From the IMG/VR virus record IMGVR_UViG_3300044946_000175, positions 55,162-119,161 of that record: a DNA stretch of 64,000 bases; one strand, given 5' to 3'. The translations under genes were made by a program, and so were the position numbers. Source of the stretch: a virus. The notes beneath the pieces were generated by a model that made no database searches, had not been told where the DNA came from, and was given only the letters and a program-made list of their open reading frames with translations. Positions 10,004-55,222 of the stretch are shown here, piece by piece (the first letter of the stretch is position 1; each line of letters opens with the position of its first letter).

Positions 10004-10534
10004 ATGAGCGAGACGCAAACTATTCACTGCTTTGAGGCTGCTGGCCTGGGTAAAGCTCCTTTTACGTATGAAGGGATGGTCGATCAGGACATTTCTTATG
10101 GGCAGCGCAATATTGGGACAATCGGAGGTGTCCAGATTTCGACAAAGCCCGGAGGAACGTGTGATTATTGCTCAACCTACATTGTGAATATGTTCCGCAT
10201 TCGCAGCGCTGACGGTAAGACGTTCAAGGTTGGGTGTGATTGTCTTATGAAGACTGGAGATGCAGGGCTTATCCAGCGAGTCAAGAAGGACGTTTCCGAG
10301 ATGGAGCGCAAGAAGCGAGCGCAAAAGAAGATCGACAAGGAAGCGGTCGCTAAGGCACAGTGCGAAGCTCTTTTGTCAGTACCGGCTGTTTGCGGAGTTT
10401 TGGCCGAGCAGCCTCATCCGTCAGCTTACTTTGCCAACGAAGGCAAGACGAAACTAGACTGGGCAAAGTACATGCTTGAAAATCGGTACTACACGACTTT
10501 ACTGGCGACACTCAAAGGCATTGACAAGAGGTAA
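10004..10534 (+). CDS. Zn-finger phage protein
   Basis: FEAAGLGKAPF...CDYC...FKVGCDC; GGAG RBS; family-A promoter 9938-9965. Confidence 0.75.
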   Translation: MSETQTIHCFEAAGLGKAPFTYEGMVDQDISYGQRNIGTIGGVQISTKPGGTCDYCSTYIVNMFRIRSADGKTFKVGCDCLMKTGDAGLIQRVKKDVSEMERKKRAQKKIDKEAVAKAQCEALLSVPAVCGVLAEQPHPSAYFANEGKTKLDWAKYMLENRYYTTLLATLKGIDKR

Positions 10535-37598: not shown

Positions 37599-38107
37599 TA
37601 CGAGGGAGGGCTGATGGGAGCATCGTCGAGAAACCGACCCTGGGCGAATCTCTGGCCAAGCTGACCTCTGTTTCTTCTCCCGATGCATCAGAGAAGAAAA
37701 GCAAAAAAGCCGTCCTGTTGCCTCACCAGAGACTCGGGACGGGTAAATGGCAGGTTGGAGTGGAGGTAGTAAATGAGAGTAATCTGCGGGATTGGAAGGG
37801 CCGCAATCGACGTGCTGGAGCGGTATGGAAAGCAGTGAGGGAGGCAGTGACTTTGCTGGAGCTTGTTGCGTTTGAACTGCGATTGAGGCACAGAGAACAT
37901 GTCTACGCACGATTTACACGCATCGGGCCTCGTATTGTTGATCGTCATATTAATCTTCCGGCTTGCTTCAAGGGTGTAGAGGATTGTGTGTGTTATCTTC
38001 TCGGTATAGATGACAGTAATCCACTCTGGCATCTGTACTTTGATCAACAAAAAGGCAAAGAAGTAGGCATTCTTATCGAATTGAGCTTCGAGAAATTCAA
38101 TGGCTAA
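37574..38107 (+). CDS. RusA-like resolvase (tentative)
   Basis: NL...FKGVED......GIDD pattern. Confidence 0.45.
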   Translation: MSTEPDWLIRGRADGSIVEKPTLGESLAKLTSVSSPDASEKKSKKAVLLPHQRLGTGKWQVGVEVVNESNLRDWKGRNRRAGAVWKAVREAVTLLELVAFELRLRHREHVYARFTRIGPRIVDRHINLPACFKGVEDCVCYLLGIDDSNPLWHLYFDQQKGKEVGILIELSFEKFNG

Positions 38108-38564
38108 AACCAAACGCAGGATCGGTGAACCAAAGAAGTCGATTCCCGAACATATAGAGAAACTGAAGAACCCCGGCACTGTCGATTCGGACTGGCCTGT
38201 GGGATGCGATCCTCGTCTGTTGCATGAGGAAGGTAGATTGCGTACTCCAGAGGGTATTCTGAGAGTTCCCGACAAGCTGCCGGGTCGTAACACGGAGTTC
38301 GTGGCGGAATACTGGCTCTTGTGGGCATATCGAGTGGAGTATGGATTCGACTGCATCACAGGAAAGGATCTGGAAGTGCAATTCGATTCCGTGACTGGAT
38401 ATCCTCTCACCAACGATCTGGAGGACGTGACGGTGGTGGAGGCGGAAGTGTGCTCGCAGTGCGGGTATCGAGCGCAGATACATCCAAAAGACGCACGCCG
38501 GATGGAATTGGAGTTGCGGGTATTATGCAATGGGAAGCGAGTCAAAGACGAGAAGGCAAACTAA
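38100..38564 (+). CDS. hypothetical protein
   Basis: 154 aa. Confidence 0.6.
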   Translation: MAKTKRRIGEPKKSIPEHIEKLKNPGTVDSDWPVGCDPRLLHEEGRLRTPEGILRVPDKLPGRNTEFVAEYWLLWAYRVEYGFDCITGKDLEVQFDSVTGYPLTNDLEDVTVVEAEVCSQCGYRAQIHPKDARRMELELRVLCNGKRVKDEKAN

Positions 38565-38578
38565 TCACTGAGGTTTTT

Positions 38579-38926
38579 ATGAAAATTTGGGCAAAGACTA
38601 AAGAATTTCAGGAAGGTAAGTACCTCGTGGTTCGCCGCGACGGTACAATTCCACACTGGCCGCATTTTGTAATAGGCGGAGATGATCCTAATGCGTCTGC
38701 TGCCCTTCGTGCATATGCAGATGAAGCAGAGAAGAACAAACTCGATCCTGAGTACGTGGCGAGTATTCGGGAACTGGCCGACGATTTTGAAGCCAGGGTG
38801 AAGGCAATCGCTAGTGGGGAAATGCAAGGCAAAGCCGATCCCGACGCTCCACCTCATCGCAAAGATAATCCAGCAATAATCGAGATGATGAGAGGTAACG
38901 GCGATCTGTCGGACTATAACAAATGA
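38579..38926 (+). CDS. conserved-type phage hypothetical protein
   Basis: GKYLVVRRDG...FV....DP.A.AAL.AYA. Confidence 0.65.
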   Translation: MKIWAKTKEFQEGKYLVVRRDGTIPHWPHFVIGGDDPNASAALRAYADEAEKNKLDPEYVASIRELADDFEARVKAIASGEMQGKADPDAPPHRKDNPAIIEMMRGNGDLSDYNK

Positions 38927-39174
38927 AGCTGAAAGACAAAATTATGATTGGTAAAGTCAGAGTCGAGATTGATGAGAGCTACAGCAACGGCTACAAGGAA
39001 GGCGCAGCCGATTGCTTGAAATGCATTTATGCTCTACTGGTGGCGGGTGACAAGGGAATGTTTCCCGCATTGGGTTTATTGACGGCCAGAGAGAAGGTAG
39101 CCTTGAACACAGCAATGCAGAAGATCAGAGACCACGTTCATTCCCCAACGGCGGATTCCAATGAGTCGGAATGA
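38923..39174 (+). CDS. hypothetical protein
   Basis: 83 aa. Confidence 0.5.
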   Translation: MKLKDKIMIGKVRVEIDESYSNGYKEGAADCLKCIYALLVAGDKGMFPALGLLTAREKVALNTAMQKIRDHVHSPTADSNESE

Positions 39175-39955
39175 TCCCCACGAACAGAAAATGCTGAACA
39201 TCCTGCGCAAGACCGATTGTTGGTCGGGCATACCTCTCTTGCGTACTGCTTTCAACAAAGGCAAATGGCGGATCTTCTACTGGTCCGCGCGGAGCATTCA
39301 TCGCCTTTTGGATCGACTTGAGAAGCGAGGACTTGCAGCATCGAAGTACGACTTTGTTCCAGTCGCTGGCGTGAAAGTGGCGAAGTTATTCTTTCGCATC
39401 AATGGCAGCGAGAATGAAAAGTGCAGTAATCAACTCAAGGACATCCGTCGCTCCGCCAAGACTCCACCGATAGGGGAGATCGTTCTCCATTGTGGCCACG
39501 TCGTGGGTGAATTTACTTTTTGGAACGTACCGGACGGAATGGATTTCATGTCTCCGGACGGCGAGATGGGCAGCGCCAAATGGATTATGGCGTGCAGGGA
39601 GTGTGACGAAGCGAGCAAGGACGATCCAAACCAATTGCGAGTCAAAGGTGACATAGAATGGAGTGAGAAATACGACGATATGACTAGCGACATCCTCTTG
39701 CAGCAGAAATGCCAGGCGCTCATTGCAGAGGTTCTGGAAAAAGTGCCAGAGGAGTATGAGTCACAACAAATCTACGTCGATCTGGACACCGACAATCCCA
39801 ACATGAAGACTGCTCAAGTGCTGGTGGTCATGGAGGATGGCAAGGGGTTTCTTTTGAAGAAGATCGATACACTGGAATTCGAAGAGACTCCAATTTTGGT
39901 GGAATTTAAAATGGAAGAAGGCAAGATCGTGATTGAGAAAATATCTACTACTTGA
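39161..39955 (+). CDS. multidomain protein with HCGH...CxxC domain
   Basis: central domain paralogous to 46151-46558. Confidence 0.65.
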   Translation: MSRNDPHEQKMLNILRKTDCWSGIPLLRTAFNKGKWRIFYWSARSIHRLLDRLEKRGLAASKYDFVPVAGVKVAKLFFRINGSENEKCSNQLKDIRRSAKTPPIGEIVLHCGHVVGEFTFWNVPDGMDFMSPDGEMGSAKWIMACRECDEASKDDPNQLRVKGDIEWSEKYDDMTSDILLQQKCQALIAEVLEKVPEEYESQQIYVDLDTDNPNMKTAQVLVVMEDGKGFLLKKIDTLEFEETPILVEFKMEEGKIVIEKISTT

Positions 39956-40023
39956 ATAAATCTTTTATTTTTCCGGCGGGAGCCTGGAAGACAAGGCGAT
40001 ATTATTGGATAAGGAGATCCATC

Positions 40024-41124
40024 GTGGCAAACGATACCATAGTCCGTGCTGTTACCATCGCCGCGAGCCGACCGCTTACTGGCGATTGGGCTGACTTCAA
40101 TAAAGCAATGGCAGCATGCTGGAGGTCGTCCACCAACGCGGCCAACTGGTGCATTACGGAGTTGTTCCGTCGCGACATTCCCAACGAGGCCAAGACTCCC
40201 GACGCGGTGAAGATGGGAAAGCAGAGCGACGGGCGATTTTACGCCTACGGCGAAGCCAAGAACCTGCCCTGGTTCTCCGAGTGGAGCGGTCAGAAGCAGT
40301 CGCTTAATATCGTTCTTCAGTATGCGCACAGGGAGTATCTGCGGCGTCGATTCGACGTGATGGTGCGGCACACTCAGTCCCTCTTGACCGTGCGGTATCC
40401 CTATCCGTTTCCGCTGGACGCCGATGTATGGAAATTGAGCTACAAGGCTGGCGACTTTCCCGTGGTTTCGTTCGCGCTGCCGGGACTGGGTAAAGTGGAT
40501 TTGCGCTTGAAGCGTCACGGGGATTTTCGGCGGCAACTGGCCATGCTGAAGCAGATACATGCGGGCACGGCAGCAAAGGGCGAAGCGGCGGTCTACAAGA
40601 ACTCAAAAGGCGATTTGTTAGTTAAGATTGTGGGGAAGTTCCCGCGCGTGGAGCGGTCGAAGGACAATCGAGTTCATGCCTGTGCGATGCACACCGATCC
40701 TGCTGCTTTATTGGTTGCCGAGATCGATGGGAGGCAACCGTGGATTCTGAACTGTGACCACTTTCGTCGTTGGCAGGCACAGCATCGAGACTTTCTACAA
40801 AGGACGCATGAGGATTTGAAGCGAGAGAAGCGAATGGATCGCCGCCAGCGAGAACAACTCAACAAGGTACGGGAGGAGAGATGCCGCAAGCACAACGACA
40901 AGCTGAAGACGGCGATTCATTCTGTTTCGAAGCAGGTCGTTCGCTTCATGGAGAGGAATCAGGTCGCGACTTTGGCATACGATGACGCGAATAAAGAGTT
41001 CATCCCGGATGGTTTCCCGTGGCATATGCTGAAAGAACAACTACGCTACAAGCTGACCGGGATGGGAGTGGAGTTCATCACTACTAACGATATCGAAAGG
41101 AACAAGACAAAGGAAATAGAGTAG
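40024..41124 (+). CDS. compact TnpB/Cas12f-like type V effector, predicted nuclease-dead and C-terminally truncated
   Basis: GTG start after AAGGAG; RuvC-I-like CAMHTDP, Arg-rich bridge helix ending IHSVSKQVV, RuvC-II-like TLAYDD, FPWHMLKEQLRYKL..MGVEF then stop; adjacent CRISPR arrays. Confidence 0.8.
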   Translation: MANDTIVRAVTIAASRPLTGDWADFNKAMAACWRSSTNAANWCITELFRRDIPNEAKTPDAVKMGKQSDGRFYAYGEAKNLPWFSEWSGQKQSLNIVLQYAHREYLRRRFDVMVRHTQSLLTVRYPYPFPLDADVWKLSYKAGDFPVVSFALPGLGKVDLRLKRHGDFRRQLAMLKQIHAGTAAKGEAAVYKNSKGDLLVKIVGKFPRVERSKDNRVHACAMHTDPAALLVAEIDGRQPWILNCDHFRRWQAQHRDFLQRTHEDLKREKRMDRRQREQLNKVREERCRKHNDKLKTAIHSVSKQVVRFMERNQVATLAYDDANKEFIPDGFPWHMLKEQLRYKLTGMGVEFITTNDIERNKTKEIE

Positions 41125-41128
41125 ACCA

Positions 41129-41235
41129 TGTGCTTTTGCCAAGCGCGGCTGCAATGGGCACTATTACCAGTGCGTAATAGGTCGCTCGCAGAACGCCGGA
41201 AACACTGGTCCAGAAGAAGGCGAACAGCCACGGCT
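41129..41235 (+). ncRNA. tracr/omega-like scaffold RNA, copy 1
   Basis: close copy of 42201-42307 with compensatory stem changes; fused to first repeat. Confidence 0.75.
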
Positions 41236-41786
41236 CTGGAGAGACCTTTGGAATCTGAAGGAGCCCGCAAGGGAATCTGAAGTGAAGGTGCAAGCAAGCC
41301 AAAAAACTTACCAATGGGATCTGAAGGTGTAAGCAAGATCTTGTCGTGCATCTTGTATCCGACGGTCGTTTTCCGGAGAGACTTTCGGGATCTGAAGGAT
41401 CGAGCAAGACTAGATTGGGCTTGCAGAGTTCAGATCAGAGGAGCCTTCGGAATCTGAAGGAACTTGCAAGGCTAAAATTTCAGCATTGCAAAATGTGAGA
41501 AAAATCACTCGGAGAGACCTCTGGGATCTAAAGGAACTTGCAAGACCAAACCATCGGCCCGACACCAGGGCAATCTTCCACCGGAGAGACCTCTGGGATC
41601 TAAAGGAACTTGCAAGCTGATACTCCAGAACTTTTAAAACTCTGCGAAGTTCTGGCCGGAGAGACCTTTGGAGTCTGAAGGAACTTGCAAGGTGAGCCGC
41701 CGAGATCCGGAGACATTGGAAGTGCTTGCCGGAAAGACCTTTGGGATCTGAAGGAGCCCGCAAGGGGATCTGAAGGTTCAAGCAAG
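41236..41786 (+). CRISPR. CRISPR array 1 (heterogeneous repeats)
   Basis: full repeats at 41236, 41373, 41435, 41509, 41581, 41656, 41729 plus half repeats at 41272, 41316, 41765; spacers 26-39 nt. Confidence 0.9.
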
Positions 41787-41854
41787 AGTGGCCCCGCTAG
41801 GAATATGCAAGTAAGGTGGTTTTTATCCATGACACCAAAAGGAGAGTTTCAATT

Positions 41855-42094
41855 ATGTCTTCTCGCGAAAGCAAAGTATCAGGCACTCAAGAGGCTGGCC
41901 GCGCATCGGTCCAGACACCGATTGAAGTCGCATCCGGCGGTCTCAATACGTTCCAAGATCATTCGCGCATGTCGAGTGCGTTGATGGTTGAATTGCTCAA
42001 TGGCAATTTGCGGAGCAAGAAAGCCAATACAGCCTGTCGAATCGGAAACTATGGGCTGCGCGCTCTGGAGGGTGCTGCCGAAGAGCGGAACTGA
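41855..42094 (+). CDS. small protein between the two CRISPR arrays
   Basis: 79 aa, AAGGAG RBS. Confidence 0.65.
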   Translation: MSSRESKVSGTQEAGRASVQTPIEVASGGLNTFQDHSRMSSALMVELLNGNLRSKKANTACRIGNYGLRALEGAAEERN

Positions 42095-42200
42095 AACAGG
42101 GGTCTGGCAGTTATTCAGGCCACTTTTTGCGAGTGGTGAAGTGGTGAACAGATCACTGGTAACCGCTCGCGCAATCCTAACAGGAGATACACAGTGACTT

Positions 42201-42307
42201 TGCGCTTTTGCCGAGCGCGGCTGCAATGAGCACACTCATCAACGCATGAGTGGCCGCTCGCAGAACGCCGGAAACACTGGTCCAGAAGAAGGCGAATAGC
42301 CACGGCT
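42201..42307 (+). ncRNA. tracr/omega-like scaffold RNA, copy 2
   Basis: see copy 1; preceded by CAGGAGATACA (family-B promoter variant). Confidence 0.75.
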
Positions 42308-43041
42308 CTGGAGAGACCTTTGGAATCTTGAAGGTGCAAGCAAGGTGTGACATTGAAGATGGTTCCGTTTTTGACTTTGACATCCGGAAAGATCTTTGGG
42401 ATCTAAAGGAACTTGCAAGGCCTCGTCTCGGGGATTGGGTTTACGCTGGTTGGTTCACCGGAAAGACCTTTGGGATCTAAAGGAACTTGCAAGCGATCGT
42501 GCTCGACTCACCTGTCGGACCAAGCTTGCCGGAAAGACCTTTGGGATCTAAAGGAACTTGCAAGCTGCACGGGAATCTGTGACAGCCGCCGGAAGTTTCC
42601 CGGAAAGACCTTTGGGATCTAAAGGAACTTGCAAGGAGTCGTCTCACGTTGAAGGATCGGCACGAGATAAACCGGAAAGACCTTTGGGATCTAAAGGAAC
42701 TTGCAAGACCGAGTAACACCATCAGCGGGAACGGGCCGTCGGGCTCCGGAAAGACCTTTGGGATCTAAAGGAACTTGCAAGTACCAAACGGTTCGATTGA
42801 GGCTTCCACAGTGGACCGGAAAGACCTTTAGGATCTGAAGGAACTTGCAAGCCATCCATGAAGTCTTTGATGCCTTCATCGTCTTTCCGGAAAGACCTTT
42901 GGGATCTAAAGGAACTTGCAAGGTGACAGAGTATCCCGGAGTGAGTGCTCGGAAAGACCTTTTGGATCTAAAGGAACTAGCAAGCTGTAAGGCCCCTCAA
43001 TGAGGACCGAAAATACTTTTGGAGTCTGAGGAATTTGCAAT
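42308..43041 (+). CRISPR. CRISPR array 2, 11 repeats / 10 spacers
   Basis: consensus CCGGAAAGACCTTTGGGATCTAAAGGAACTTGCAAG; spacers 39,38,35,35,36,38,34,35,26,22 nt; degenerate terminal repeat 43007-43041. Confidence 0.97.
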
Positions 43042-43088
43042 AATATAAAGGAAGGAGAAGACAAAATCATTTTTGAGGAAAATGAATA

Positions 43089-43874
43089 ATGGCACGTCCG
43101 AAGAAGGGGTTCTCGAAAGCAGGCAAGCGTCTGGGTAGGCCGGTGGGGACAAAGAACAAACATAAGAAGCGGAATATTCCTGTTCCGCCTCCTCCCGATG
43201 CGCCCATCGATCCGAACACGCCTCCAGAAGATCGTCCTCTCTCGCCCACCGAGCGGATGTTCGTGGGTCGCTATCTGGTGAACAACAACGCAACTCGTTC
43301 GTACCAGGAGGTATACCAGTGCAGTTACGGCAACGCGAACAAGGAAGGTCCGTTGATGCTCCGCCGCCCCAATGTGGCCAAGGAGATCCGCTGCGCCACG
43401 GAAGCGGTGATGCAAAAGTTTCGGTTAAACAACGAGGATGTGATCCAGGAACTTATTCGGGTTGCCTTTTCCGATCTGGTCTGCGTGGAGAGTGCGTTTG
43501 GTGATTTCCTGCGCCTGTCGCAAATTCCCACGCAGGAGCGCCGGGCCATTCAGTCGTGTAAATTTCGCACGCGATCTATTTCGAGGAAGAAGGGACCGCC
43601 GATAGTGGAGACCACTATCGAGTATAAGATGCACAAAAAGGTGGACGCTTTGGGTCTGCTTGCGTCTTATCTGGGAATCCGCAAGACCGGTATTCCCGAT
43701 TTTGAAGCGTTCTTGGCTCTGCTGCCGACAGAAGTCGCGCAGCAACTCAAGGACATGATCTCCAAGACAATGAAAGAAAAGACCGAAGCTTCGAAGAATG
43801 GGCATGTTGATGAGTTGCCTTCTACTTCTCCGGTCAAGACGGAGGTGGCCGTTCCCCCTGTCGAAACCCCGTAA
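43089..43874 (+). CDS. terS: terminase small subunit
   Basis: LSPTERMFV..YL...NATRSY...L..PNV..EI...VIQEL.RVAFSD...K.DAL.LLA.YLG. Confidence 0.85.
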   Translation: MARPKKGFSKAGKRLGRPVGTKNKHKKRNIPVPPPPDAPIDPNTPPEDRPLSPTERMFVGRYLVNNNATRSYQEVYQCSYGNANKEGPLMLRRPNVAKEIRCATEAVMQKFRLNNEDVIQELIRVAFSDLVCVESAFGDFLRLSQIPTQERRAIQSCKFRTRSISRKKGPPIVETTIEYKMHKKVDALGLLASYLGIRKTGIPDFEAFLALLPTEVAQQLKDMISKTMKEKTEASKNGHVDELPSTSPVKTEVAVPPVETP

Positions 43875-43918
43875 ATGAAAATTTAAATTTTGCCTTTTAA
43901 ACATCGGAGGAAAACAAA

Positions 43919-44131
43919 ATGCATGACGATCATGACGAGTTCGATGAAGGCGATGCGCGGATGCAGCGGGAGTTCAACGATAAGATGATGGTGATCGGTG
44001 AGCGGAACAACAAAGCCTGCCATGCGCTCCGATACGTGGAGTGTTTTGGCGGAGAGAAGATGGACGATAAGGAACGGAGAGTCCACGAGGCGGCACTGGA
44101 CGTCCTGCTCGATTACTTCAAGAGGGATTGA
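43919..44131 (+). CDS. hypothetical protein
   Basis: 70 aa, GGAGG RBS. Confidence 0.6.
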   Translation: MHDDHDEFDEGDARMQREFNDKMMVIGERNNKACHALRYVECFGGEKMDDKERRVHEAALDVLLDYFKRD

Positions 44132-44544
44132 GTGTGGCCGAGAAGAACTTCGATCCGCAGGGCGGCGTGCCGTGGGAACCCAAGTATCCGGAATTCGCCG
44201 TACCGCACACGCCGGAGTCGGCTGGTGTCAAGGACGAACTCGATGAGTCTGGTAAGGAATGGACACCGGCCCCGTCCACGTCTCACCTGGAGGGATTCCG
44301 GTACTTTCCTGGTAATACTCGCTTTGCTCAACTGTTCTTGAACGGGCGATCTGAGATCCAGGTACGGTTCCGTCCCAAAGGCAAGACGCCGATGACTGAA
44401 TATCACTACTGGCCTTCTGATGTTCATGAGGCCGACCTGTGGTGGTTCAAGCTCTCATCGGCTGATTCTCCTGGGGAGGTCATTCAGGAGATGATCAAGG
44501 CGCAGATTCCGTATCGGAAAGCGGCAATCGGGAGCATGGGTTGA
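44128..44544 (+). CDS. KTSC-like hypothetical protein
   Basis: S.SHL..FRY...I.VRF......EY.Y......W..L..A.SPG. Confidence 0.5.
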   Translation: MSVAEKNFDPQGGVPWEPKYPEFAVPHTPESAGVKDELDESGKEWTPAPSTSHLEGFRYFPGNTRFAQLFLNGRSEIQVRFRPKGKTPMTEYHYWPSDVHEADLWWFKLSSADSPGEVIQEMIKAQIPYRKAAIGSMG

Positions 44545-44930
44545 TTTTTCAATTAAATCCAACGATTCCACTGGACACGATTCGAGGAAAAGGATTTGCC
44601 CATTTTATACTCGATCTTAGCCAGGAGCACCGAACGCTCTTTGGTGTATTCTTGAACGCGTGCGGGTCTTTCTGGTGGATCGATCAGCGAGACGTGAAAC
44701 TGGAAAAGAACTGGAGTCTGGGAATCAGAATAGAGGAGTGTGAATTGTGTCAAAGTACGAACCAAAGGAATTCGGATGCACCTGTCTGCCATCCGCCGAA
44801 GAACACCCAGAACTCATTTGTATCGGTTGTCAAGCCAACCGAGCCATCGCCGAAGCCATGCAGGAAGCAGCCAAAGAAGCCGCTCAAGAAGTCCGCAAGA
44901 CCGACATCGCGGGCTTCAACGAAGTCATGA
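44541..44930 (+). CDS. hypothetical phage protein
   Basis: QLNPTIPLDT.RGKG.AHFILD.SQEH; 3' end overlaps next ORF. Confidence 0.5.
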   Translation: MIFQLNPTIPLDTIRGKGFAHFILDLSQEHRTLFGVFLNACGSFWWIDQRDVKLEKNWSLGIRIEECELCQSTNQRNSDAPVCHPPKNTQNSFVSVVKPTEPSPKPCRKQPKKPLKKSARPTSRASTKS

Positions 44931-45106
44931 GAACCAAATTAGTGATTACGAATGAAGACGATACAGTAAGTGGTAAGACGCTCTGGATCGAAACCCACGA
45001 AGGACATTTCGTCATGGTGGGGATGATCAAGGCTTTAGAGTGGGAGCGGCGCAAGCAGCGATTGGAGAGGGCGAAGTCCTTGGGACAGATTACTTGCTCG
45101 ATATAG
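44747..45106 (+). CDS. hypothetical protein
   Basis: GAGGAG RBS upstream. Confidence 0.45.
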   Translation: MSKYEPKEFGCTCLPSAEEHPELICIGCQANRAIAEAMQEAAKEAAQEVRKTDIAGFNEVMRTKLVITNEDDTVSGKTLWIETHEGHFVMVGMIKALEWERRKQRLERAKSLGQITCSI

Positions 45107-55144: not shown

Positions 55145-55222
55145 AATTACTCCAATTCGGGGTTAAGGTTTCGGCCATTCGTGGCCCACTCCCGTGAGAG
55201 TAGGGCGCGAGAGGTCGGGGGA

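Follow-up and report, generated by a model that had tools for sequence, protein, structure and literature searches.

Predicted guide-RNA scaffold joined to the first repeat of two phage CRISPR arrays beside a gene for a Cas12f-like protein

Introduction

In the omegaRNA of ISDra2 TnpB, the nucleotides at positions -5 to -3 before the guide were reported to pair near the 5' end of the 116-nt scaffold, forming a pseudoknot (PMC10097598). The same structural account equated the pseudoknot, together with the stem that follows it, with repeat:anti-repeat duplexes 1 and 2 in the single-guide RNA (sgRNA) of Cas12f, called the omegaRNA a natural sgRNA, and stated that the design of guide, pseudoknot and stem is conserved in all Cas12 guides. 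The present analysis concerns a block of about 107 nt that occurs twice in a 64,000-nt stretch of virus DNA (the window; IMG/VR record IMGVR_UViG_3300044946_000175, positions 55,162 to 119,161), taken from a 119-kb virus record that is 85% complete. Both copies lie downstream of a gene for a small Cas12f/TnpB-like protein (the effector), each abutting a CRISPR array.

As judged from comparison of related sequences, the block and the first repeat of the array probably form a structured non-coding RNA of the + strand, which would be the guide-RNA scaffold of the adjacent Cas12f-like protein, equivalent to a trans-activating CRISPR RNA (tracrRNA) or to an omegaRNA. Its predicted design of guide, pseudoknot and stem matches that of the TnpB omegaRNA and the Cas12f sgRNA. 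Scaffold, first repeat and first spacer would together be a natural single guide, with the guide 3' of the repeat as in both of these RNAs, and internal repeats may draw on the same scaffold in trans. The complex would probably bind DNA without cutting it and act as a repressor, by analogy with truncated derivatives of Cas12f and TnpB (PMC13472631).

The closest precedent is a nuclease-dead Cas12f cluster near CRISPR arrays and not linked to sigma-E, for which putative guide RNAs upstream of the arrays were reported from covariation (Nature 2026, PMC13472631, Extended Data Fig. 1a,b); in the example given, from a Chitinophagaceae metagenome-assembled genome (MAG), the guide targets the promoter of an efflux pump. 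That cluster likewise has a C-terminal truncation with loss of part of the RuvC site, an adjacent array, a structured RNA upstream of it and a proposed role in repression. It was described from bacterial genomes, in one sentence and one panel, whereas phage records are concerned here, with a protein that is remote in sequence from dCas12f.

The locus resembles Cas12f (type V-F) in the protein fold, in the position of the scaffold 5' and of the guide 3' of the repeat, and in having two repeat:anti-repeat contacts, including a guide-adjacent pseudoknot (PMC10097598). It differs from Cas12f in the natural fusion of scaffold and first repeat via a small hairpin, in a repeat that keeps an internal hairpin, in contacts of only 4-6 bp and in an effector without the third RuvC motif and the zinc finger; in addition, no cas1, cas2 or cas4 was found, with cas1 and cas2 searched for in the 119-kb record. 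The locus and the ISDra2 omegaRNA both have a scaffold of about 100-140 nt starting at or near the end of the protein gene, pairing of the 5' part of the scaffold with positions -5 to -2 before the guide and, as a prediction for the locus, a guide of the natural single type; however, the omegaRNA has one guide and lies at a transposon end, whereas here a multi-spacer array lies in a phage. TldR and dCas12f-sigma-E are also truncated TnpB or Cas12f derivatives with single-guide-type RNAs, and TldR is phage-encoded, but their guide RNAs stand alone without CRISPR arrays and their partners are fliC/oppF or rpoE. In type II-A and type VI systems, leader RNA pairs with the first repeat as well; those hairpins are short and regulatory, whereas the scaffold described here is of about 110 nt and has a pseudoknot to the guide-adjacent end of the repeat.

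A census of TnpB and Cas12 in PNAS has 40 candidate subtypes, V-U6 to V-U45, in its supplement (PMC10691335), and the phage effector family may be among them. No description of such a phage-borne family with an array-joined scaffold was found in open-access full-text literature, which is not proof of absence.

Very small RNA-guided DNA binders are wanted as tools and are unusable until their guide RNA is known. The locus provides a testable guide architecture (scaffold, two repeat contacts, guide 3' of the repeat) for a large family without Pfam or PADLOC annotation. It also provides a natural case of a tracr-like scaffold physically joined to a CRISPR array, which bears on the split of the omegaRNA into tracrRNA and CRISPR RNA (crRNA) and on their re-fusion, an idea proposed from structures and phylogeny with few natural examples (PMC10097598, PMC10691335, PMC13472631). 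The locus further suggests the use of multi-guide programmable repressors by soil phages.

Results and Discussion

A conserved RNA structure between gene and array

Protein relatives of the effector were gathered by a word-indexed search (57 matches) and a full profile search (1045 representatives at 50% identity), and related loci were taken from viral and metagenome contigs, with 14 distinct loci obtained out of a family of about 1000 clusters. The scaffold was seen in all 14 of the distinct loci with sufficient downstream sequence; it lay downstream of the homologous gene, on the + strand, and abutted a CRISPR array. Four loci without it stopped short of the expected site (L007 and L013 at the gene, L012 and L016 just upstream). 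Including the two window copies, there were 16 scaffolds, each on the + strand and between gene and array.

By blastn, the block was located downstream of the gene in five loci (about 70-75% identity). From seven sequences, RNAalifold derived a 30-pair consensus, and covariance model R1 was made from these; R2 was a second model. Model R1 recovered L008, L015, L002, L018 and L003 (88 to 23 bits), and overlooked the true scaffold of L004, with a spurious weak match at 10423 (E 0.4). Model R2 recovered L004, outside its training set (48 bits, E 1.2e-7), and the scaffold was present at 41-45 bits in L023, L025 and L026, which were reached via distant family members. Recovery by a covariance model not trained on them applied to four of the 14 loci. 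Exactly one match was obtained in each of 5 other whole virus records (37-104 kb), and therefore the model is specific and the duplication in this phage is unusual. The scaffold was kept across 26-60% effector protein identity, while the repeats changed completely.

Across 13 scaffolds, 95.3% of 383 cells were paired and 23 of the 30 consensus pairs had double-sided changes. The covariation score was 0.687, versus 0.183 in shuffles (0/500 as high) and 0.067-0.102 with slid partners. Selection on RNA structure, which the initial annotation had claimed from the two window copies, was thus supported by comparison with homologous loci, with the scaffold in 14/14 loci and strong covariation.

The consensus was composed of P1, a hairpin of 6 bp whose loop has about 5-7 nt; P2a/P2b, a long-range helix across about 40 nt whose 3' strand (GCUCGC) is invariant; P3, a hairpin cap with variation in all 7 pairs and a loop that kept CNNYGC; a conserved single strand; P4, six pairs of the scaffold anti-repeat with the first bases of the first repeat, across about 20 nt; and P5, a small linker hairpin between the two P4 strands (Table 1).

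Pair 32-66 was G-U in 10 of 13 sequences and would be a C-A mismatch on the minus strand, and the functional strand is therefore +. In a minus-strand RNA, 24 G-U cells, that pair included, would turn into C-A mismatches, and all model matches were on the strand of the effector gene and array. A functional minus strand, or an element acting as DNA such as a regulator binding site, is accordingly the least credible of the alternatives, even with a minus strand of copy 2 that also folds well (-41.1 kcal/mol, z -1.1) and a promoter recognised on neither strand; the freely varying stem sequences do not fit sequence-specific binding to DNA.

A leader peptide was ruled out: substitutions tracked pairing, not codon position (by eye), and the candidate open reading frames (ORFs) were of 11-38 codons and unequal lengths; in L005 and the distant loci they were missing or lay in a different frame. 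AGGAG with GTG 7 nt before P1 was seen by eye in window copy 2, L006, L008, L010 and L011.

Two contacts with the repeat

Repeats of different loci had little in common beyond length, and the anti-repeat of the scaffold followed the repeat 5' end (UCCGG:CCGGA, UCGCC:GGCGA, UCGGG:CCCGA, CCAGG:CCUGG; further matches were GCGAGG:CCUCGC, GCCGC:GCGGC and GCUGGA:UCCAGC). The anti-repeat helix had 97.4% of cells paired and double changes in 5 of 6 pairs (13 scaffolds, model-fitted alignment), and 88.5% of cells paired on a structure-blind MAFFT alignment.

Four bases of the P1 loop were complementary to repeat positions -5 to -2, beside the spacer, in 16/16 scaffolds, with six types of pairing (CUGC:GCAG, UUGC:GCAA, CUUC:GAAG, CCGC:GCGG, UCGC:GCGA, CCAC:GUGG). 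On the structure-blind MAFFT alignment, 64/64 cells between P1 loop and repeat 3' end were paired, with double changes in 3 of 4 pairs. Cross-locus combinations of loops and repeats with different repeat ends gave 4 contiguous pairs in only 6/98. For the two contacts combined, pairing was 93.1% versus 73.8% in shuffles (MAFFT alignment). The pseudoknot idea arose from the initial 13 scaffolds, and the three loci added later (L023, L025, L026) conformed to it. This covariation points to a pseudoknot across about 130 nt, in which the P1 loop would pair with repeat positions -5 to -2; in copy 1, repeat GCAA (41267-41270) pairs with P1 loop TTGC (41136-41139).

Cas12f needs a tracrRNA, and proteins of such size and fold (Cas12f, TnpB) depend on a long scaffold RNA. 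This general knowledge speaks against the block being a leader RNA element that controls the array from outside the effector complex, either as a leader-repeat hairpin choosing the processed crRNAs or as a transcription attenuator. Such an element is unlikely, although P4 does pair the leader with the first repeat, and in this phage fits the first repeat only, and an upstream hairpin (P0) has strand sequence in common with P2 that would allow alternative pairing. Leader-first-repeat hairpins with such roles have been described in other CRISPR types (PMC13187072). A leader element would leave unexplained about 80 nt of further covarying structure (P1-P3), as well as the pairing of the P1 loop with the guide-adjacent repeat end in 16/16 scaffolds, which is a hallmark of Cas12 and TnpB guide scaffolds according to the structural account of the omegaRNA (PMC10097598). 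The occurrence in 14/14 loci, the two covarying repeat contacts and the predicted Cas12f fold of the effector instead favour a tracr- or omega-like scaffold joined in cis to the first repeat over a plain leader, as the initial annotation had proposed.

Divergence of the two copies in the window

The near-identical blocks that had been noted in front of both arrays (41129-41240 and 42201-42312) aligned without gaps and differed at 15 of 112 positions (structure-guided alignment). Eight of the 15 differences were four two-sided pair changes in the 7-bp hairpin P3, which is fully paired in both copies (CTATTAC/GTAATAG at 41161-41180 versus CACTCAT/ATGAGTG at 42233-42252). Three were one-sided switches between Watson-Crick and wobble pairs (41131, 41141, 41157), the last of them being the G-U/A-U swap that had been reported between GGGC/GCTC and GAGC/GCTC. 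Four fell in unpaired positions (loops or junctions), and none of the 15 broke a pair. The earlier description of the duplicated blocks is therefore correct. Both copies scanned as full-length family members with model R2 (107 bits for copy 1 and 109 bits for copy 2), which agrees with their having been seen as maintained. The duplicated stretch extends into an atypical first repeat (CTGGAGAG...) common to both arrays.

A closing helix that had been proposed between 5' GCTTTTGCC and 3' GGCGAA(C/T)AGC did not hold: 53.0% of its cells were paired versus 51.9% in shuffles (13 scaffolds; 178/500 shuffles as high). It was present only in this phage and was dropped, and its bases are instead part of P1 and of linker hairpin P5.

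No RNA sequencing run with this stretch was listed. Comparison of the window with contigs from three soil DNA runs gave one variant and the possible protospacers described below. The variant, in a single low-depth contig from soil run X2, was a T>C at 41131 by which the P1 U-G pair of copy 1 becomes C-G as in copy 2.

The divergence of P3 between the copies would be neutral drift in a stem of which the pairing matters and the sequence does not. Apparently compensatory changes in local hairpins are also possible through template switching in quasi-palindromes. A hairpin such as P3 could be kept by switching between palindrome arms, and not by selection on RNA, if the block were a plain CRISPR leader duplicated with its array; it does occupy the place of a leader and was duplicated along with the first repeat. 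This explanation is strongly disfavoured and has very little probability. Local template switching could speed the divergence of P3 but cannot explain, or keep, P2a/P2b (about 40 nt), P4 (about 20 nt) or the pseudoknot (about 130 nt). In addition, the element was conserved at 26-60% protein identity despite wholly changed repeats, no cas1 or cas2 to use a leader was found in the 119-kb record, and no promoter-like site preceded either copy (sigma-70 scan only).

The effector and its family

The effector had zero Pfam or PADLOC matches. Residues 215-379 aligned with positions 168-341 of the 389-position NCBIfam profile guided_TnpB (E 5.7e-4, a match well short of the cut-off), and the protein stops 11 residues beyond the segment aligned to profile position 341. 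An AlphaFold2 model of the effector had a predicted local distance difference test (pLDDT) score of 87.3, and Foldseek with this model had as top matches AsCas12f (8j12_A; E 3.2e-19, 380 aligned columns) and the truncated dCas12f (9n9c_A; E 9.8e-14, 16% identity in the Foldseek alignment), along with further Cas12f entries. The family profile also matched the OsCas12f sequence (E 2.6e-4). The effector is thus predicted to have the Cas12f fold, with WED, REC and RuvC parts.

The effector stops short of a zinc finger and of the third RuvC motif, and a complete RuvC triad with zinc finger was not found in it; the zinc-finger/RuvC-III segment was absent from 23/23 aligned family members. Being without the third RuvC motif, the protein would therefore probably bind DNA in its complex without cutting it. 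The family had 1045 representatives at 50% identity, 550 of them at E <= 1e-30, nearly all of 355-480 aa and with no Pfam domain on record. A search for longer relatives gave zero within 887-2530 residues, a range that is uninformative for full-length relatives of 500-880 residues. Some family members had an N-terminal CxxC...CxxC extension.

Weighing of the guide-scaffold reading

Several observations weigh against a guide scaffold serving a nuclease-dead effector. Pairing counts from the model-fitted alignment favour structure, and shuffle controls overstate significance with related sequences; the slid controls and the recovery of untrained loci nevertheless argue that the structure is real. 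Single-sequence folding energies were ordinary (z -1.0 to +0.1), and the evidence for the scaffold is therefore comparative, not thermodynamic. Promoter-like sites were at chance level, with none in front of either copy (sigma-70-type scan only). In L003, L015 and L010, the repeat ends can pair with each other, competing with the scaffold contacts, and scaffold segments thereby resemble the opposite repeat ends. Acidic residues were conserved at RuvC motifs I and II (Asp249, Asp344/345), and with these kept, nuclease-dead is a property that we infer from the truncation. Finally, the anti-repeat of this phage (UCCAGA) fits the first repeat (UCUGGA) only, with a central mismatch to the internal repeats (CCGGA), so that use of the scaffold in trans with other spacers is doubtful in this phage.

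In most loci, the anti-repeat fitted all repeats. In this phage, the cis pairing would be the selected one, since the compensated CCAG:CUGG fits the first repeat only. A wider and more tentative proposal, to which we give somewhat less than even weight, is that the locus is a living intermediate between the single-guide omegaRNA and the split tracrRNA and crRNA, with a privileged fused guide and a scaffold lent in trans to other repeats. The effectors would then be a large unannotated family (>1000 clusters at 50% identity), borne mostly by phages and soil metagenomes, of Cas12f-like DNA binders with partial loss of the nuclease site. The duplication of the unit in this phage, and the co-evolution of the anti-repeat with the first repeat alone, would suggest a return towards omegaRNA-like single guides.

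Arrangement of the locus and origin of the duplication

The order on the + strand was effector gene, 107-nt block, array 1, 79-codon ORF, terminator-like hairpin, second block and array 2 (Table 1), with a gene for the small terminase subunit 3' of array 2. In relatives, the order was gene, small ORF, hairpin P0, scaffold and array, which is the arrangement of copy 2. Copy 1 begins 5 nt after the stop codon of the effector. DNA at 41845-42094, in a frame other than that of the 79-aa ORF, encodes the 'SHPAV' C-terminal extension of effector homologs (blastp to homolog tails). This tail homolog lies stranded 3' of array 1, and its loss from the effector is therefore due to an insertion of scaffold copy 1, with array 1, at the 3' end of the gene; some relatives are likewise without the C-terminal tail. 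Judged from gene order, copy 2 is at the site of the single copy of relatives, and the inserted copy 1 with its array is a putative later duplicate.

Hairpin P0 was found by eye about 30-75 nt upstream of the scaffold in 12/13 cases, copy 1 being the one without it. The 3' strands of P0 (CCGCTCGCG) and of scaffold P2 are identical in sequence, and therefore alternative pairing or a common protein site is possible; P0 may act as an operator or a processing site, or may extend the RNA at its 5' end. Directly after the small ORF, at 42101-42121, there is a terminator-like hairpin with a T run. If this terminator works, array 2 and its scaffold need their own promoter in 42122-42200, where the sigma-70 scan recognised none.

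Table 1. Position, strand and basis of the features of the locus (window coordinates)
Feature	Position	Strand	Basis or remark
Effector gene, small Cas12f/TnpB-like protein	40024..41124	+	ORF; 366 aa from 40024 (database form P0001), longest ORF 390 aa from 39952
Scaffold copy 1	41129..41240	+	Covariance-model matches of 116.4 bits (R1) and 106.6 bits (R2)
Copy 1 P1	41130-41135/41141-41146, loop 41136-41140	+	Consensus structure, structure-guided alignment
Copy 1 P2a	41149-41152/41188-41191	+	Consensus structure
Copy 1 P2b	41156-41159/41184-41187	+	Consensus structure
Copy 1 P3, variable hairpin	41161-41167/41174-41180	+	Consensus structure
Copy 1 anti-repeat	41209-41214, partner 41235-41240	+	Consensus structure
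Copy 1 P5, linker hairpin	41219-41221/41227-41229	+	Consensus structure
Array 1 first repeat, atypical (CTGG..., not CCGG...)	41236..41271	+	5' end pairs with anti-repeat
Array 1 remainder	41272..41800	+	Heterogeneous repeats and 3' half-repeats; terminal GCAAG in all
Small conserved ORF, 79 aa	41855..42094	+	tblastn matches to L001, L011, L026
Upstream hairpin P0	42128..42171	+	Fold of -26.3 kcal/mol, z -3.1
Scaffold copy 2, arrangement as in relatives	42201..42312	+	Covariance-model matches of 121 bits (R1) and 109.1 bits (R2)
Copy 2 P3	42233-42239/42246-42252	+	Consensus structure
Copy 2 P1 loop TTGC	42208-42211	+	Consensus structure
Copy 2 anti-repeat	42281-42286, partner 42307-42312	+	Consensus structure
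Array 2	42308..43042	+	Atypical first repeat 42308-42344 (GCAA 42340-42343), then regular repeats

No Cas1 or Cas2 match was obtained anywhere in the 119-kb record (85% complete). None of the three flanking ORFs scanned (39161-39955, 41855-42094 and 43089-43874) gave a sigma-factor Pfam match; rpoE was not sought in the rest of the record. An Rfam search of 38000-45000 gave 3 weak unrelated matches (E 0.13-4.8) and zero within the scaffolds, and a search of a phage collection with 41129-43042 gave zero matches in cultured phages. A scaffold sequence pattern matched only the contig of L001 among viral contigs. The form of the pattern used on genome contigs excluded the commonest variant and is uninformative on prophages; its single match, in Rhodospira trueperi, was rejected as a chance hairpin (11.4 bits, E 0.12). 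A protein-pattern scan of genome contigs gave zero relatives.

Repeats and spacers of the two arrays

The first repeat began with CTGG in both arrays, and internal repeats with CCGG. Array 2 had repeats of 36 nt (CCGGAAAGACC...GCAAG) that decay towards the right end, and spacers of 34-39 nt, with last two intervals of 26 and 22 nt. In array 1, the terminal GCAAG was the one invariant part of the 3' half of the repeat; the five bases before GCAAG differed between repeats. Half-repeats of the 3' side (GGRATCTGAAGG-N5-GCAAG) without a 5' half were present in array 1 at 41272-41372 and 41765-41790, and the terminal 16 nt of one of them recur at the end of the first repeat in array 2. By eye, a segment at 41409-41436, within an array 1 spacer slot, was complementary to GCAAG and GATCTGAA of the repeat.

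As to self-targeting, blastn-short of all spacers against the 119-kb record gave only matches of 14-17 nt, at chance level, and for array 2, a search of viral contigs with 20 nt of spacer 1 gave zero exact matches. This spacer (42344-42381) holds two TTGAC motifs. Contigs of soil runs X2 and X3 matched it in the spacer alone (X3 with 3 mismatches), with unrelated flanks on both sides and a common ATTAGT a few bases upstream, and are candidate protospacers for the scaffold-proximal guide.

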